DNA of 64,000 nucleotides from Escherichia phage LHE83, in sequence record OQ561750, one strand, 5' to 3'. Within the stretch, counting starts at the first letter, position 1; each line of letters starts with the position of its first letter. Both the position numbers and the translations under genes were made by a program. Positions 3,103 to 24,380 of this stretch are shown here, in pieces. The notes under the pieces are model-generated. The model did no database searches, was not told the DNA's origin, and worked only from the letters and a program-made list of their open reading frames with translations.

Positions 3103-3290
3103 TGGACTTATTTGATATGTTTGTCATTCCGGACCCTGAGCCTGAAACAACTCAGGAGCCGCCTGTTGACCTTGTCAACGAACTTGATATGATTATACAG
3201 AAGCATGGTTTTAAGTTGCCTAAAGATGTTCTTAGTGACCTAGCTTCTTATTACTTAGACCCTCCACCCTGGGCTCCTTGGGTAAAATAA
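3102..3290 (+). CDS. hypothetical acidic protein (62 aa)
   Basis: Start overlaps upstream stop (TAATG). Confidence 0.4.
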   Translation: MDLFDMFVIPDPEPETTQEPPVDLVNELDMIIQKHGFKLPKDVLSDLASYYLDPPPWAPWVK

Positions 3291-3292
3291 AG

Positions 3293-3321
3293 TTTTACAC
3301 CTCCTCCCTTCATGTTATAAT
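3293..3321 (+). promoter_or_regulatory. early promoter (TTTTAC, 17 bp, TATAAT) with leader hairpin sequestering SD
   Basis: -10 TATAAT at 3316-3321; inverted repeat TGACCTC / GAGGTCA spans the GGAGG SD before ATG 3346. Confidence 0.5.
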
Positions 3322-3345
3322 GACCTCTAAATCACTGGAGGTCAT

Positions 3346-3915
3346 ATGAACATCGAACAAAAATGTCTTTATCAAGACCGAATCAATTCCAAATTCTCAA
3401 AACACGAACAGAATCTTTTAGAAAAATGTCTAGATGCTAAAAAGGACCCTAACTTCCATTACGACCTTGATAAGCTAGTTCGTAAGCATGTTACTTCAGC
3501 GGTTCCGGTAGAGCTTTATCGTGGGATTACCGCTATGGAACTTGAGCAACTTGAAGTTCTTTCTGTTGGGTGCCAGTGGTCTCCTGGCCGGGTTACTTCT
3601 TTTAGTACACAATACTCACAGGCTCGTCAGTTCGCAGGGGCATGGGAATATGGAACCAGAACCATTTTAAGTCTCAGGAATGCACCGTTCATTTTCGACT
3701 ACTATAACCATGCTATCGACCTTGTTCTTGCAGGGAATGTAGATGAGCTTGAAATAGATGAAACCCGTATAGACCTCTACGATATGGTCGAAACTGAATG
3801 TGAGTTCATGGTCTCCAGCCAATCACGATTTGAGATTGTGGAAATCGAAACTATCAAAAGGGACCCGTACGAAATCGAGTACAAAACAATTCATTTAAAA
3901 ATGTTGGATTTTTAG
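3346..3915 (+). CDS. modB: ADP-ribosyltransferase, ModB-like
   Basis: 189 aa; ART motif set R (LYRGI), S-x-S (SFS), E-x-E (ETECE); paralogue of next ORF; modB or modA identity by gene order only. Confidence 0.55.
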   Translation: MNIEQKCLYQDRINSKFSKHEQNLLEKCLDAKKDPNFHYDLDKLVRKHVTSAVPVELYRGITAMELEQLEVLSVGCQWSPGRVTSFSTQYSQARQFAGAWEYGTRTILSLRNAPFIFDYYNHAIDLVLAGNVDELEIDETRIDLYDMVETECEFMVSSQSRFEIVEIETIKRDPYEIEYKTIHLKMLDF

Positions 3916-5773: not shown

Positions 5774-7101
5774 TTACATTTGAAGACTTGAACAACGGCC
5801 AGAGGACGGCCTTTAAAGAAATCATTGAAGCTATTAAACGACGTAAGGGTGAATGGATTACATTGAACGGTCCTGCTGGTACAGGTAAAACAACCCTTAC
5901 CAAATTTATTCTTGACCATCTAGTCAAGAATGGTGAACTCGGAGTTATTTTGACTGCGCCTACTCATGCGGCCAAAAAGGTATTGTCGAAACTCGCAGGT
6001 CAAGAAGCATCAACAATTCATAGAATTCTAAAAATTAACCCTACTACGTACGAAGACCAGGACATCTTTGAACAACGCGAAGCTCCTGACTTGAGCAAAT
6101 GTAATGTTCTAGTTGTTGACGAAGGCTCGATGATTGACGGTAAGCTGTTTAAGATTATTGAATCCTCCGTGCCACCATGGTGTACTGTATTAGGGATTGG
6201 CGACAGAGCTCAGCTACAGCCAGTGGAACCTGGAAGTGATGGTAGCCCTCAGTTGTCTCCATTCTTTACACATCCAAAAATCAAACAATTACATTTGACT
6301 GAAGTGATGCGTAGTAATGCTCCTATCATTGAGGTGGCTACTGAAATCCGTAATGGTGGGTGGTTTAGAGATTGTGTATTCGAAGGACATGGTGTCCATG
6401 GTTTTAAATCCCAAACAGCATTAAAAGATTTTATGATGAATTATTTTTCCATTGTAAAAGATGCTGATGCCCTGTTTGAGAATAGGATGTTTGCTTATAC
6501 CAATAAATCGGTTGAAAAGCTGAATAGCATTATTCGTAAAAAGCTTTATGAAACCGATGCACCTTATATCAAGGGCGAAATCCTAGTGATGCAAGAGCCT
6601 TTTATGAAGGAACTTGAATACGATGGTAAGAAATTCTCTGAAACCATTTTTAATAACGGACAAATGGTTCGTATTCTGGATGTGAACCATACCTCGTTGT
6701 TTTTGTCTGCTAAGGATGTAGGCACTCGTCAAATGATTAATTACTGGGACCTGCAAGTAGAATCTGTTGATGAAGACGACGAGTACTATGTAGAGCATTT
6801 AAAGGTTATCGATGAGGCTTCAGTTGAGAAGTTCCATTATTTCTTGGCTAAGGTTGCTACAGAGTACAAAGCCATGCGTGGTAGTGGTAAGAAACCTAAG
6901 TGGGCTGATTTCTGGAAAGCCAAGCGAATGTTCAGTAAGGTTCGAGCTCTTCCTGTGAGCACTGTTCATAAATCCCAAGGACTTACAGTCCAAAACAGTT
7001 TCATCTATACTCCATGCATGCATATGGCTGATGCGAATTTAGCTTCACAGCTGGCTTATGTTAGTATTACTCGTGCTCGTACTGACGCCTACTACGTTTG
7101 A
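5770..7101 (+). CDS. dda: Dda DNA helicase (SF1B)
   Basis: 443 aa; Walker A GPAGTGKT; N-terminus MITFEDLNNGQR as recalled for T4 Dda. Confidence 0.9.
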   Translation: MITFEDLNNGQRTAFKEIIEAIKRRKGEWITLNGPAGTGKTTLTKFILDHLVKNGELGVILTAPTHAAKKVLSKLAGQEASTIHRILKINPTTYEDQDIFEQREAPDLSKCNVLVVDEGSMIDGKLFKIIESSVPPWCTVLGIGDRAQLQPVEPGSDGSPQLSPFFTHPKIKQLHLTEVMRSNAPIIEVATEIRNGGWFRDCVFEGHGVHGFKSQTALKDFMMNYFSIVKDADALFENRMFAYTNKSVEKLNSIIRKKLYETDAPYIKGEILVMQEPFMKELEYDGKKFSETIFNNGQMVRILDVNHTSLFLSAKDVGTRQMINYWDLQVESVDEDDEYYVEHLKVIDEASVEKFHYFLAKVATEYKAMRGSGKKPKWADFWKAKRMFSKVRALPVSTVHKSQGLTVQNSFIYTPCMHMADANLASQLAYVSITRARTDAYYV

Positions 7102-19834: not shown

Positions 19835-19996
19835 ATGGTTATCCTAGTTTTTATTGAACTTATTATGGCTATAGTCTGTTCAGTTTGCTTCTTTTTAGGT
19901 GTGTGGGCCCCTCGTCCGATATTCTTAAGTTTTCTGCTTATTGGTTGGGTTCTTTCTACTTTTGTCGGTTTACTTAAGACGATTAAAAATGATTAA
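19835..19996 (+). CDS. ac: small membrane protein (53 aa) at the T4 ac position
   Basis: Two hydrophobic helices; lies between stp and 52 as T4 ac does. Confidence 0.45.
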   Translation: MVILVFIELIMAIVCSVCFFLGVWAPRPIFLSFLLIGWVLSTFVGLLKTIKND

Positions 19997-20129
19997 TAAA
20001 ATCCTGGGCTACTCGTTAGCCCTTGCTGCTTTATTAGTAGCGCTGTATTACGGAGTAATGTTCGGACTTATCCAAGTTGTGCTTTTTATTTCCGATGTTA
20101 TTATGGCTATTCATTCACTAGTATGGTAA
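19989..20129 (+). CDS. small membrane peptide (46 aa)
   Basis: ATG overlapping upstream stop; hydrophobic. Confidence 0.35.
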   Translation: MINKILGYSLALAALLVALYYGVMFGLIQVVLFISDVIMAIHSLVW

Positions 20130-20133
20130 AATT

Positions 20134-21513
20134 ATGGCTGATGTAATTGATACCCTTTTTAAACAGGCTTTAGATGTTTACGATGATTCTTTCACTCGTC
20201 GTGACTTAAAAAGTATTATCGACAACGAAGCATTGGCTTATGCAATGTATACTGTCGAAAACCGAGCCATTCCAAATATGATTGATGGCTTTAAACCTGT
20301 ACAACGTTTTGTAGTGGCTCGTTGTCTTGATATGGCTCGTGGTAATAAAGAAAAATTCCACAAACTGGCTTCTATCGCTGGTGGTGTAGCCGACCTCGGA
20401 TATCACCACGGTGAAGGTTCTGCTCAGGAAGCAGGGGCTTTGATGGCTAACACATGGAACAACAACTATCCATTGTTAGACGGTCAAGGTAACTTCGGTT
20501 CTCGATTGGTTCAAAAGGCTGCAGCCTCTCGTTATATTTTTGCTCGTATCGGAAGTAACTTTGCAAAAGTTTATAAGGACACAGAATATGCTCCGGTTCA
20601 TGCGGATGTCGAACATAAGCCACCGGCTTTTTATCTGCCTATTATTCCTACTGTTCTTCTTAATGGCGTTTCCGGTATTGCAACTGGTTATGCAACTAAT
20701 ATTCTTCCTCATAGTTTTGATTCTGTTAAGAAAGCTGTACTGCAAGTTCTTCAGGAAAAACGAGTAACCAAACCCAAAGTGGCTTATCCTGAATTCCGTG
20801 GTGAAGTTGTTGAGATTGAACCTGGTAGTTATGAGATTCGTGGAACGTATAAGTTCACATCCCGAACCCAAATGCATATCACGGAAATCCCATACAAATA
20901 CGACCGTGAAACATATGTGGCTAAGGTATTAGACCCTCTGGAAGACAAAGGGTATATCACATATGATGATGACTGTGACGAGAACGGTTTTGGCTTCAAG
21001 GTTAAGATTCGTAAAGAATACGAATTGCCTACCGAAGAAAACAAGAAGCATGAAAAAATCATGAAGGACTTCGGGTTAATCGAACGTCGTTCACAAAACC
21101 TGACCGTCATTAATGAAAAAGGTAAACTTAAGGTTTACGAAGATGCAGTTGAACTGATTCGTGATTTCGTTGAGGTCCGTAAGACCTTTGTACAAAAACG
21201 TATTGATGGTAAAATCATCGAAACCGAAGAAGCTTTTAAACTAGCATTGGCTAAAGCCACATTCATCAAAGATGTTATTGACGGGACTGTAGTTATCCAA
21301 GGTAAGACTCGTAAGGTTTTAACTGAGGAATTGGCTGGTAATAAAGTCTACGGCGAATACGCTGATAAACTGGTTGCAATGAACATTTTCCATATCACAT
21401 CCGATGAAGCCAAGAAACTGGCCCTCGAAGCCAAGGCTAAGAAAGAAGAGCATCAATACTGGAAATCTACTGATGTGGTAACTGAGTATGTTAAAGATTT
21501 GGAGGCTCTATGA
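20134..21513 (+). CDS. 52: DNA topoisomerase II medium subunit gp52 (GyrA-like)
   Basis: 459 aa; N-terminal region RDLKSIIDNEALAYAMYTVENRAIPNMIDGFKPVQRF as recalled for T4 gp52. Confidence 0.9.
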   Translation: MADVIDTLFKQALDVYDDSFTRRDLKSIIDNEALAYAMYTVENRAIPNMIDGFKPVQRFVVARCLDMARGNKEKFHKLASIAGGVADLGYHHGEGSAQEAGALMANTWNNNYPLLDGQGNFGSRLVQKAAASRYIFARIGSNFAKVYKDTEYAPVHADVEHKPPAFYLPIIPTVLLNGVSGIATGYATNILPHSFDSVKKAVLQVLQEKRVTKPKVAYPEFRGEVVEIEPGSYEIRGTYKFTSRTQMHITEIPYKYDRETYVAKVLDPLEDKGYITYDDDCDENGFGFKVKIRKEYELPTEENKKHEKIMKDFGLIERRSQNLTVINEKGKLKVYEDAVELIRDFVEVRKTFVQKRIDGKIIETEEAFKLALAKATFIKDVIDGTVVIQGKTRKVLTEELAGNKVYGEYADKLVAMNIFHITSDEAKKLALEAKAKKEEHQYWKSTDVVTEYVKDLEAL

Positions 21514-21614
21514 GCCTTGGAGTCGAGTTCTTGTTACTCTGTATCTTTGCTGTTATTCTGGGCCTGGCGACAGGCTTAGCTATAGGTTTAATAGCAGCTC
21601 ACTTTAAAAAGTAA
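21510..21614 (+). CDS. small hydrophobic peptide (34 aa)
   Basis: ATGA overlap with gp52 stop; one TM-like segment; followed by terminator. Confidence 0.3.
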   Translation: MSLGVEFLLLCIFAVILGLATGLAIGLIAAHFKK

Positions 21615-21636
21615 GGAACCTTCGGGTTCCTTTTTT
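21615..21636 (+). terminator. intrinsic terminator (GGAACC-UUCG-GGUUCC plus U6)
   Basis: Identical hairpin to the one after soc. Confidence 0.75.
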
Positions 21637-21653: not shown

Positions 21654-21682
21654 GTTTACTTCTGCTTTAAACATGATACTAT
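21654..21682 (+). promoter_or_regulatory. early promoter for motA (GTTTAC, 17 bp, TACTAT, AGACCTATCA)
   Basis: Conserved promoter block. Confidence 0.55.
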
Positions 21683-21720: not shown

Positions 21721-22356
21721 ATGTCTAAAATTACTTATATCATCAAAGCTTCTGAAGACGTCCTGAATGAAAAAACTGCTTCGATCTTAGTACATATCAT
21801 CAAGCATAACTTCATCACTTCAGGCGAAGTCCGTGAAGCCCTGAGTGAGCAATTTAGTGCTGCGGTAGTTAACTCTAACATCGGTGTATTGATTAAGAAA
21901 GGATTCATCGAAAAATCCGGTGATGGTTTAGTGGCTACGGGTGAAGCAATGGACCTAGTTCAAAAAGCCGCCGACCTGTTCGCTTCTGAAAATGCTCCAG
22001 AGATGTTGGAAAAACGTAAAACGCGTAGTTCACGTGGTGTTACTCCTGAAATGGTAACACTGGCTGATGAAGTTAAAGCTTTATTAGAAGACCGTATCGA
22101 GATTCGTGAAATTGCTGAAAACCGTAGCAACCTTGAAGTTCGATTCGCTAAACGTACCAACGGTATTCGTCAAATCGAAGTCCGTCGTGATGGAATGATG
22201 CGTATCTTCGGTTATAATATGACTGATAAAGAAAAACAGGTATTTACTTCCTTGAATCTTGATGTTAAGATTAAGACTGGTGGTAAGAATACTTATATCG
22301 ACTTCCAAAACGTATCATCTGAAGTTATCAAAACCGTAACCAACGCAATTATCTGA
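21721..22356 (+). CDS. motA: middle-transcription activator MotA
   Basis: 211 aa from ATG 21721; matches T4 MotA as recalled (SK.TYIIKAS.DVLNEKTA, RTNGIR, MRIFGY). Confidence 0.85.
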   Translation: MSKITYIIKASEDVLNEKTASILVHIIKHNFITSGEVREALSEQFSAAVVNSNIGVLIKKGFIEKSGDGLVATGEAMDLVQKAADLFASENAPEMLEKRKTRSSRGVTPEMVTLADEVKALLEDRIEIREIAENRSNLEVRFAKRTNGIRQIEVRRDGMMRIFGYNMTDKEKQVFTSLNLDVKIKTGGKNTYIDFQNVSSEVIKTVTNAII

Positions 22357-22370
22357 CTGAGGAAATTATT

Positions 22371-22700
22371 ATGAACAAGTTTAATATTCTGTGTGAATTA
22401 CAGCGTTGTAAAGAAAACACCCAAGAAGGTTGGGATATCTGGTATCACGGTGCTTATCTTGGAAGTATCATAAAGGTTAAAGTCGGTAAATACTTAATCG
22501 TCCGTAATGATTCAGGCGCTCCATACGGTTCTCGTGATACTTTTATGGCGGCATTAGGTTCTTTCGTTGATGCTGCTGGTGAGGTGTACCAAGCAGACTA
22601 CAAAGAATACCAGGAATCACAACCTGTTATTCGTTCAATTGGTGTAAATAAAGCTCAACAGAAAACTTTATGGCAACGTGTTAAAGGATGGTTCAAATGA
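22371..22700 (+). CDS. hypothetical protein (109 aa)
   Basis: ATG with GAGGAAA SD. Confidence 0.5.
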   Translation: MNKFNILCELQRCKENTQEGWDIWYHGAYLGSIIKVKVGKYLIVRNDSGAPYGSRDTFMAALGSFVDAAGEVYQADYKEYQESQPVIRSIGVNKAQQKTLWQRVKGWFK

Positions 22701-23035
22701 TTCCGATGGAACTTAACTGGGACGGTGAAGGTCATTCCCTTAAATTGATTGAAGAACAACGTAATGATTGGGACGAGCGTGTAGCTTTGGTAAGCGGTAT
22801 TAAGAAAATTTACCAACTCGATCTCCAGATTGATAACGTTTATCTTGAATTTGGTATGCAGTTATTACGATTTCTTGAGATTATTTTTATTGAAAAGGTA
22901 AATATAACTTCGTATGGCGAGGGCCAAACAGTTAATATTAAATTATCATCCTATTATAAAGGTGATTTAATTGAAACTGCCACCAAAATTCAAGAATTTG
23001 CTAAAGATAATGGTCATAAGGTGATTTTCAAATGA
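22697..23035 (+). CDS. hypothetical protein (112 aa)
   Basis: ATG with AAAGGATGG SD; overlaps upstream stop. Confidence 0.45.
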
Positions 23036-23520
23036 ATCCATTAAAAGGTAAAGCATTATCCTTTAAAGACCGTATGGCTTTATTAGATAAAGCTCTTTCT
23101 CGCGAGACGCCTGAAAGTCTAGCAGCTAAATTACGGGCATATGGTGATTACACCGAATATACAGAAGAGGATGTTTTAGAAGAGGTTCCTGAAATCTGTT
23201 GGCAAATCGCTCATTGGAACAATAATGAAAAATATCAGCGCAGGATTGTGTGCGCAGCCAACCGCTTTAAGTTAAAAGACGGTGGGACTCTGGTTATTCC
23301 TGGCGCTCGTCATTATTCTAAAGATATGGCTGAAGTTCTCGACCAGGTAAGTGATAAACTTGCATCAGACCATGTTTGTGGTGATGACCAAGGATTTATT
23401 GACCAATATTCAAACTATTGGACTCGCGAAGAAGCAATGATTATTGCGACTTATGCTAATCAAGTTCGTATTGAACGTGATGGCAGTGAAAAAGAACTTT
23501 ACTCTGAGGACCTTTACTAA
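23032..23520 (+). CDS. hypothetical protein (162 aa)
   Basis: ATGA overlap; conserved-looking motifs RIVCAANRF and LVIPGARH; family not recognised. Confidence 0.5.
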
Positions 23521-23801
23521 TGAATCTTAAACAACTCCAGATTGATGCAATCGAAGCCCATATTAATCATGTTAAACGTCTTAATGTCATGGTGGAAGAC
23601 AACTGGGGAACTTATGTCAACCAACCGGCTTGGGATGCCTTAGACCACGAATATATAAAGAATATTAGTTCTAAGACAATCCATGGTAATATGGAAGGGT
23701 TGAAGCCGTTCCTACGTGATATGTATATTGCAACTAATAAAGAAATTATCAGCTCTCTTGAATATCAATTAAGGAAATTACGTGAACAATCCGGTAGCTA
23801 A
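23520..23801 (+). CDS. hypothetical protein (93 aa)
   Basis: Start overlaps upstream stop (TAATG). Confidence 0.45.
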   Translation: MNLKQLQIDAIEAHINHVKRLNVMVEDNWGTYVNQPAWDALDHEYIKNISSKTIHGNMEGLKPFLRDMYIATNKEIISSLEYQLRKLREQSGS

Positions 23802-24034
23802 GCACGATTTCAATAAGGCTTCTGTCCATAAGGATAAGAAGAAAAATCTTAAAGAGTCTAAACGTAAACAGAAACATAAGGGTAAAGGCTATGAGTCATA
23901 ACTTAGAGAATACCGTAACAGGCATGCGTACACGTGAGCAGGAGTGCTTTGAGGAATTCCTGGGAGCTGATTTTAAGTTCCAGGAACCAATAGAAGAGAT
24001 GTATCAGGAATATGTTAAAAAGAACGAAGAACAT

Positions 24035-24063
24035 GTTTACAATCCCTAAGGATATGTTAGTAT
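24035..24063 (+). promoter_or_regulatory. early promoter for asiA (GTTTAC, 17 bp, TAGTAT)
   Basis: -35 at 24035-24040; followed by CCCTATCAG block. Confidence 0.5.
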
Positions 24064-24104
24064 AGCCCTATCAGATAATGACGTACTGAATTGAAGAGAA
24101 TATT

Positions 24105-24380
24105 ATGACTAAAATTGAAATCGTTTCCGAAATTGCTACTATTGTTTCCATTTTGATTAAAACGGATTGTGAAGACATCATGCAACGTCGTGATGAGTTT
24201 ATTGCCTTTTTGAATGAGTTGGGTATTCGTAATGAACATGGAAAGGAACTTAATGGTTTGTCTTATAACAAATTATTTAAGTCATTAACTGAAGATGAAC
24301 GTGACACTCTTATTGAGCAATTTAATGAAGGGTATGAAGATATACACCGTTACTTAATGATGTATACCTCCAATTTCTAA
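24105..24380 (+). CDS. asiA: anti-sigma70 factor AsiA
   Basis: 91 aa; matches T4 AsiA as recalled (IVSILIK...FIAFLNE.G...LI..FNEG.E...RYL.MYT). Confidence 0.85.
   Translation: MTKIEIVSEIATIVSILIKTDCEDIMQRRDEFIAFLNELGIRNEHGKELNGLSYNKLFKSLTEDERDTLIEQFNEGYEDIHRYLMMYTSNF

Follow-up and report, generated by a model that had tools for sequence, protein, structure and literature searches.

One of the small genes between motA and asiA of Escherichia phage LHE83 encodes a protein whose N-terminus is very probably homologous to the helices with which CmdA, antitoxin in the CmdTAC defence system, begins. The gene lies in a stretch of 64,000 nucleotides from sequence record OQ561750 (hereafter the window), is one of six open reading frames (ORFs) in its interval, and is an orthologue of T4 arn.3 (23032-23520, 162 aa; coordinates are those of the window, and features are on the + strand unless noted). 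Its product appears to be composed of two modules: the CmdA-antitoxin-like pair of helices, for which we claim homology over residues 9-40 (23056-23151), and a T4_Y16D core (PF26092; residues 70-162, 23239-23517) that contains the invariant columns of its family and the C-terminal motif SEDLY. We suggest, at a probability of about one in three, that Arn.3 acts as a stable mimic of CmdA and would neutralize CmdT-type mRNA ADP-ribosyltransferases; antitoxin mimicry is the most economical reading of its CmdA-like N-terminus. No report of homology between Arn.3 and CmdA was found in the literature searched.

CmdTAC, also known as PD-T4-9, is a recently described and widespread toxin-antitoxin-chaperone (TAC) system that defends E. 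coli against T-even phages. Its toxin, the mRNA-modifying ADP-ribosyltransferase CmdT, blocks translation and is freed once ClpXP degrades the antitoxin, CmdA. The SecB-like chaperone CmdC shields CmdA until gp23, the capsid protein of the phage, titrates the chaperone off. When CmdA is made non-degradable, by deletion of clpP or clpX or by an AA-to-DD mutation, it does neutralize CmdT. The sole reported escape route is a laboratory-selected extension of Alt.-3 in T4; the authors of the CmdTAC study could select no gp23 escape mutants in that phage, and no natural phage inhibitor of CmdTAC is described in the literature that we searched.

Homology between Arn.3 and CmdA emerges from searches begun at either protein. 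The PADLOC model PD-T4-9_B matches Arn.3 at residues 9-41 (profile positions 2-34 of 77, E 1.9e-9) as well as nine other Arn.3 homologues (E 2e-12 to 3e-3), and when a profile of the N-terminal module was run against 5.8 billion proteins it picked up 77-aa proteins (E 1e-9 to 1e-10), two of which end in LAA and one in AA. The 77-aa proteins P0277 and P0275 are each encoded in an operon together with a 189-195-aa protein and a 130-aa SecB-like protein, and in both operons all three products are full-length matches to PADLOC PD-T4-9 A, B and C. One of these operons is flanked by gpA and the portal gene of a P2-like prophage, the published setting of the CmdTAC of ECOR22. Judged by model match and gene order, P0277 and P0275 are genuine CmdA. 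BLASTP of Arn.3 against CmdA P0275 aligned 20/32 identical residues (63%, E 8e-11), and a second BLASTP against CmdA gave 56% identity over 32 residues (E 3e-10) with the same positions conserved. The reverse search, tblastn with CmdA, reached 129 phage genomes, all of them large T4-like myoviruses with hosts in Escherichia, Klebsiella, Erwinia and Vibrio; 115 matched at 60-80% identity, and among the matches listed those with gene names were always arn.3 or a mis-named homologue. AF2 predicts helices in Arn.3 at residues 11-23 and 27-36. In the CmdTAC paper CmdA is likewise an N-terminal helix pair, followed by an unstructured tail, and the helices were taken from an AlphaFold model to be the toxin-binding part. 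In other words, the segment through which CmdA presumably touches its toxin appears to be present in Arn.3. A scan of bacterial genomes for CmdA relatives by DNA pattern confirmed none, the pattern having been too narrow, and tblastn against plasmids found nothing.

Beyond the helices Arn.3 departs from CmdA. It lacks the chaperone-addiction (ChAD) tail, profile positions 35-77 being unmatched, and it lacks the Ala-Ala ClpXP degron, ending in SEDLY in place of the LAA or AA of CmdA homologues. Its gene belongs to a lytic phage, the helices are fused to T4_Y16D, and neither CmdT nor a SecB-like CmdC lies beside it, its neighbours (the 112-aa ORF and arn.2) having no PADLOC match. Because addiction tail, degron and operon partners are all missing, Arn.3 is not itself a TAC antitoxin. 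The helices also occur alone: a 51-aa stand-alone ORF (P0271, contig positions 4001-4156) matches CmdA positions 2-43 at E 2.6e-19, has no ChAD tail, and is found on unclassified metagenomic contigs of 32-74 kb among small hypothetical genes, with no CmdT or CmdC neighbours. Its contig has no nucleotide similarity to any catalogued phage. We regard P0271 as a second candidate inhibitor of CmdTAC. Separately, Vibrio phage vB_VspM_VS2 (250 kb) has at 182071-182334 a CmdA match over 96% of its length at 34% identity, and the protein encoded there is a possible phage-borne antitoxin of the TAC type, in full length.

The second module accounts for most of the conservation in Arn.3, which is 74% identical to T4 Arn.3 overall (E 8e-82). 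An earlier note on this interval, made from the letters of the DNA without database searches, had pointed to conserved-looking motifs in the 162-aa ORF; these are present and sit on the invariant columns of the family. In an alignment of 45 Arn.3 homologues the conserved part is residues 70-162, in which V73, A75, A76, R93, H94, Q120, G121, F122, D124, R132, A139, Q144, L156, S158, E159, L161 and Y162 are invariant, the last five positions of the protein forming the SEDLY motif. All of these homologues have a precomputed match to T4_Y16D, a family that takes its name only from a T4 protein. An exhaustive profile search gathered 5425 T4_Y16D clusters (50% identity) at E<=1e-3, most of them 83-110 aa long, with the domain standing alone. 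Its place is always C-terminal, and it is sometimes duplicated in tandem and sometimes preceded by unrelated N-termini or by long stretches without a Pfam match. Thus Arn.3 shares with this family all of its invariant columns, and differs from most members in having a CmdA-like N-terminal module. The AF2 model of Arn.3 has a mean pLDDT of 85 (core 89-97), with residues 50-162 folded at pLDDT ~85-97. Searched with this model, PDB structures contained no fold neighbour of T4_Y16D, and BFVD contained only uncharacterized phage proteins and weak matches inside three 'large polyvalent' proteins. T4_Y16D is accordingly described here as a phage domain family of very large size whose predicted fold has no representative in the PDB. 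An enzymatic role would be in keeping with its invariant polar residues, and an interaction mediated by the tail with the SEDLY fixed at its C-terminus. No Pfam domain was found in the fusion partners of ten long members, and gene neighbourhoods of distant members held small hypothetical genes only. We also considered T4_Y16D as a relative of the CmdT toxin, which would make Arn.3 a relic of a fused toxin-antitoxin pair, and rejected this, with an hhalign probability of 0.1% and nothing from BLAST.

Published plating data offer a natural experiment, in which we compared the type of Arn.3 N-terminus with plating on ECOR22 CmdTAC for twelve BASEL T-even phages and T4. Among the twelve BASEL phages only Bas35 (efficiency of plating, EOP, 0.85) and Bas38 (EOP 0.32) escape CmdTAC; the others plate at EOP 1e-4 to 1e-6. 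Their Arn.3 N-termini are of two types. The CmdA-like type (MKTFKERLELLD..., 26-31 bits against PD-T4-9_B) is found in the resistant Bas35 and Bas38 and in the sensitive Bas36 and Bas46, while the T4 type (MNPFINRLKMLNVPL..., with a proline in helix 1, 14-16 bits) is found in T4 and the eight remaining BASEL phages, every one of them sensitive. The two phages that escape both have a well-preserved module, and no phage with a decayed module escapes.

If Arn.3 is indeed an antitoxin mimic, it would be made early in infection in a protease-resistant form, with neither degron nor addiction tail, and once the CmdA of the host had been destroyed, CmdT-type toxins would be bound by the N-terminal helices of Arn.3. 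CmdT would be kept neutralized, and phage mRNA would stay translatable. The T4_Y16D domain could then be a stable scaffold or the source of a second activity, and allele specificity between module and toxin would set which CmdTAC variants are neutralized. The proposed logic, a stable toxin neutralizer supplied by the phage, is that of known phage substitutes for antitoxins, namely T4 Dmd (against RnlA and LsoA) and the pseudo-ToxI of PhiTE. Dmd is not known to be homologous to the antitoxins that it replaces, and pseudo-ToxI is an RNA. The Arn.3 module differs from both in being an antitoxin-homologous protein segment, fused to an unrelated domain, with a putative activity. A broader picture is somewhat more doubtful: that T-even-like phages captured the toxin-binding helices of CmdA and joined them to a stable domain, so that Arn.3 became a degradation-proof and allele-specific inhibitor of CmdT-type defences, that the arn operon as a whole is an island for counter-defence and protection of translation, in which Arn.2 is possibly RaiA/HPF-like, and that the T4 module has decayed and is inactive.

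Several observations weigh against a role of Arn.3 in neutralizing CmdT. The great majority of T4_Y16D proteins lack the module, so that the core domain, to judge from this distribution, has a separate function. In the same profile search, unrelated small proteins showed a looser 'ETPESL' helical-hairpin motif (E 0.2-3), and given this generic motif the module may be a general adaptor. The modules of Bas36 and Bas46 are equally CmdA-like (31.3 and 29.6 bits), yet both phages are restricted 1e5-fold by ECOR22 CmdTAC, so the module is not sufficient against that allele. Resistance in two of four carriers as against none of eight non-carriers gives a one-sided Fisher P of 0.09. Finally, among seven phages whose gp23 was compared, alanine at 194 together with a residue other than Q at 195 is specific to the two resistant ones. 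The module is at best necessary and allele-specific, and may be irrelevant; the published phenotype data neither confirm nor exclude the counter-defence hypothesis.

It is a real possibility that Arn.3 acts through T4_Y16D on some other host or phage target, and that its CmdA-like helices amount to a portable helical hairpin of a generic kind, with no role against CmdTAC. They would then have been put to use for solubility, dimerization or as an adaptor, and be shared with CmdA by descent. The habits of the core domain fit such a role, since it occurs mostly alone at 83-110 aa and otherwise with unrelated N-termini, in tandem copies or possibly inside large polyvalent proteins, and an active site or binding tail belonging to the domain itself is suggested by R93, H94, Q120, D124, R132, Q144, S158 and E159 and by SEDLY, whose position is strictly C-terminal. 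The sensitivity of Bas36, Bas46 and T4 to CmdTAC and the looser ETPESL motifs in unrelated small proteins point the same way. However, CmdA is far closer to Arn.3 than are these generic motif carriers (56-63% identity over 32 residues at E ~1e-9, against E 0.2-3). Moreover, T-even phages are common to both, as carriers of Arn.3 and as the specific targets of the defence system, and what Arn.3 has lost is exactly the degron and ChAD part, a coincidence that is hard to credit if the hairpin is generic.

A further explanation concerns the plating data alone, and seems to us unlikely: the resistance of Bas35 and Bas38 would come from gp23 variants that evade recognition by CmdC, with Arn.3 uninvolved and the co-occurrence of its module a case of phylogenetic hitch-hiking. 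Gp23 is the known trigger of CmdTAC, and within its loop 136-206 the pair 194A/non-Q 195 occurs only in the resistant two of the seven phages compared. Against this explanation, gp23 of Bas35 differs from that of the sensitive Bas37 and Bas39 at two positions only, 194 and 195. No gp23 substitution by itself is exclusive to the resistant pair among the seven, which leaves no single substitution as the cause, and the failure to select gp23 escape mutants in T4, noted above, also speaks against this explanation. Extension of Alt.-3 was ruled out as the source of resistance in Bas35 and Bas38: the protein is an unextended 96 aa and differs by <=1 residue between resistant and sensitive phages.

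Returning to the locus itself, the 109-, 162- and 93-aa ORFs are almost certainly orthologues of T4 Arn.4, Arn.3 and Arn.2, respectively, and the locus is, on gene content and order, a Dhakavirus version of the T4 arn operon that lacks arn and arn.1. The earlier note had proposed a comparison with T4 arn and arn.1-arn.4, in which one of the ORFs might prove to be an Arn homologue; the comparison did uncover the three orthologues, and none of the ORFs is Arn. The best pairing of any of them with T4 Arn covers 20 residues at E 9.6, and tblastn with the Arn of T4, JS10 and Bas38 against the 64-kb window gave nothing significant (best E 0.034, outside the locus). An Arn homologue among the ORFs was on these grounds ruled out, and neither T4 Arn nor Arn.1 has a counterpart anywhere in the 64 kb. 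The window shares with the T4 operon its position, order and strand relative to gp52, motA, asiA and t, the orthologous Arn.4, Arn.3 and Arn.2 (74%, 74% and 38% identity) and an asiA.1-like gene start. It differs in the absence of arn and arn.1, in an extra 112-aa cassette between arn.4 and arn.3, in a DUF7230 peptide after arn.2, in the length of Arn.4 (109 aa, against 68 aa in T4), and in lacking the pairing site for the small RNA (sRNA) ArcZ, CCAGGGAAAT, that forms the 3' end of T4 and T2 arn.2. Neither the 112-aa nor the 39-aa ORF has a T4 counterpart at the locus. In GenBank and UniRef the name 'anti-restriction nuclease' is widely attached to homologues of Arn.2, Arn.3 and Arn.4, none of which resembles Arn; it looks as if the name had spread from the arn.x gene symbols. 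That the 112-aa or the 52-aa ORF stands in for the missing arn as a DNA-mimic inhibitor of McrBC-type restriction is very improbable: both are acidic, as is T4 Arn (pI 4.99 and 4.57, against 4.55), but neither has sequence similarity to any Arn type, and since JS10 has homologues of both alongside an arn-like gene, neither ORF is a replacement for that gene.

The absence of arn can be read at the junction in comparison with JS10, where a 93-aa arn-like gene (JS10 piece 3150-3431; 33% identical to the Arn of Bas38, Bas42 and Bas46) lies between the 39-aa and 52-aa ORFs. This gene is cleanly absent from the window, and CTATGA is found at both ends of the missing segment: in JS10, GGCTATGA is followed by TTACT at one end and CCTATGA by GTCAT at the other, where the window reads GGCTATGAGTCAT at 23886-23895. 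The repeated CTATGA suggests a deletion in the window, or an insertion in JS10, by microhomology at gene starts. Other traces of this kind were noted. In the 112-aa ORF, the first 20 codons (22697-22756) encode what is, in the homologues P0021, P0033, P0076 and P0123, the N-terminus of Arn.3 itself, and in P0021 these 20 residues lead directly into the CmdA-like module; the arrangement looks like that of an ancestral arn.3 into which a cassette was inserted just past its start. Bas35 has the same pattern: between its arn.4 and arn.3 lies an additional 51-aa ORF (Bas35 piece 6841-6996) that starts with MKTFK, as does Bas35 Arn.3. A 203-aa Arn.3 variant (P0001) has the CmdA-like module and then a degenerate module of the T4 type in tandem. 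The shared gene starts, the tandem modules of P0001 and the clean loss of arn together show a pattern that we read as the swapping of cassettes at conserved gene starts. Such swapping is a known feature of the plasticity regions of T4-type phages.

The remaining ORFs vary in how much can be said of them. The arn.4 orthologue (22371-22700) is 74% identical to T4 Arn.4 over the latter's 68 residues, and its 109-aa product is basic (pI 9.1). It belongs to a family of 41 clusters at 60-100% identity, all with PF26821, in which T4 Arn.4 (T4 piece 2628-2834) is an N-terminally truncated outlier, the other 40 clusters, including those of T4-like BASEL phages, being ~109 aa. A resemblance to the RNA polymerase binder P7 of Xanthomonas phage Xp10 was considered and dropped, as neither a sequence match above cut-off nor a P7-like fold was found; structure prediction for Arn.4 is shaky, with a mean pLDDT >70 in one of five models. 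Among PDB sequences no relatives were found of either the 109-aa or the 112-aa product. The latter, a lineage-specific cassette ORF (22697-23035), is confined to Dhakavirus, is acidic (pI 4.99) and is 63% identical to its JS10 homologue. We place its start at the ATG at 22697, where the mechanical list of ORFs begins at an upstream ATG (22688).

The arn.2 orthologue (23520-23801) is 38% identical to T4 Arn.2 over 98 columns (E 3e-20), and several faint signals connect it to the ribosome-associated proteins RaiA and HPF. NCBIfam models for RaiA (E 0.063, full length) and yfiA (E 0.078) both match far below their cut-offs, and only in Arn.2 alleles of the window type. RaiA/protein Y takes all five top places among the PDB matches of an Arn.2 profile, though the E-values are 0.044-0.066 and the alignments cover a single helix. 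This C-terminal helix, RDMYIAMNEEIISSL.YQLRKL, aligns with RaiA at the same position in proteins of similar length. An hhalign comparison of Arn.2 with RaiA and HPF gave a local probability of 77% and a score of 32.9, against <=14.6 and <=0.7% for 21 shuffled or reversed controls; of the RaiA and HPF sequences used, RaiA residues 67-91 were checked against the PDB alignment. No Arn.2 member matches the Pfam S30AE family. That Arn.2 is a ribosome-binding factor of the RaiA/HPF kind is a lead only, and on balance we think it improbable. The 3' end of T4 arn.2 has a further peculiarity. The sequence CCAGGGAAAT found there (T4 piece 1877-1890) agrees with the site reported for T2. It is presumably complementary to AUUUCCCUGG of ArcZ, as we take the sequence of that sRNA to read. 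The 10-mer of this site is absent throughout the window (compared region 23770-23801), as are the T4 intergenic region and arn.1 that follow arn.2. With all of these missing, the arn transcript of this phage should have no ArcZ-dependent protection.

The 39-aa Lys-rich ORF (MNNPVAKHDFNKASVHKDKKKNLKESKRKQKHKGKGYES; 23782-23901) matches Pfam DUF7230 (PF23876) at 50.9 bits against a cut-off of 27 (E 1.7e-13). It is extremely basic (pI 10.2) and 92% identical to its counterpart in JS10. Its KGKG tail loosely recalls what we take to be the tail of the ribosome-rescue factor ArfA, though Pfam gave no ArfA match. The acidic 52-aa ORF (23891-24049; pI 4.57) has an AsiA.1-like start, with 41% identity to T4 AsiA.1 over residues 1-29 only (E 1e-5); the C-terminal halves differ.

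All six frames that the earlier note had placed on the + strand between motA and asiA are present (22371-24049), including the GTG-initiated 39-codon frame that it put near 23783, and its 52-codon frame stands with coordinates moved by one, from 23890-24048 to 23891-24049. They are far from chance, because each has a PHROG family match and because they are also annotated in close relatives, as arn.4/arn.3/arn.2. The PHROG E-values range from 9e-23 to 1.5e-71, with 4e-48 for the 109-aa, 3e-68 for the 112-aa (phrog_14178), 1.5e-71 for the 162-aa, 1.4e-40 for the 93-aa (phrog_1844), 9e-23 for the 39-aa (phrog_1359) and 5e-35 for the 52-aa ORF (phrog_5245). The six are tightly packed, and every start/stop junction overlaps: ATGA at 22697 and 23032, TAATG at 23517-23521, and further overlaps of 20 nt and 11 nt. 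Shine-Dalgarno-like AAGG(A) lies a few bases 5' of GTG 23782 and likewise of ATG 23891. The 2.8 kb round the locus is 98.1% identical to Salmonella phage vB_SalD_ABTNLS3 and 89-96% identical to WG01, Bp7, IME08 and JS10 (genus Dhakavirus, T4-like Straboviridae), from which similarity the window is assigned to a Dhakavirus, a JS98/JS10-like relative of T4.

The flanking genes are those named in the earlier note, each with Pfam matches: motA, the activator of middle transcription (21721-22356; MotA_activ 3e-34, MotCF 9e-14), whose product from ATG 21721 is 52% identical to T4 MotA, and asiA, the anti-sigma-70 factor (24105-24380; AsiA 1e-21). The window order of gp52, a 34-aa membrane ORF, a terminator-like hairpin, motA, the six ORFs, asiA and, on the opposite strand, the holin gene t mirrors that of T4 (52, motA.1, motA, arn.4, arn.3, arn.2, arn.1, arn, asiA.1, asiA, t). 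The hairpin, after gp52 and the 34-aa ORF, spans 21613-21632 and has an 8-bp stem with four GC pairs, followed by a T run. Two promoter-like sites were read from the DNA: GTTTAC, 17 nt and TACTAT upstream of motA (21654-21682), and TTTACA, 16 nt and TG-TAGTAT in the 55-nt gap before asiA (24036-24063). The first of these resembles the early-type promoters of T4 and is the putative promoter of motA and the six ORFs. Promoter-like gaps were seen solely at these two places, and we infer from this that motA and the six ORFs form one early transcription unit, with the hairpin at its upstream edge. For T2, a 2026 preprint regards the genes from arn.4 to arn as a single abundant transcript and describes arn.1-arn.4 as lacking a known function. 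An Rfam scan of the interval gave no family match. As to the genes further upstream, the hydrophobic 34-aa ORF (phrog_16377, 21510-21614) overlaps the gp52 stop codon at roughly the position of T4 motA.1, and a homologue of T4 gp52.1, 96% identical, lies directly upstream of gene 52 (19989-20126).

The presence of uncharacterized ORFs in the arn region, from which this analysis set out, is in itself ordinary, these being mostly orthologues of named but poorly understood T4 genes. The N-terminus of Arn.3 is of wider interest. If Arn.3 does neutralize CmdT-type toxins, a function would be available for one of the long-standing arn.x ORFs of T4, and the resistance of Bas35 and Bas38 to CmdTAC would be in part explained, though the two sensitive carriers of the module would still need an explanation. 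Part of an antitoxin would also, in a clear example, have been captured by a lytic phage.

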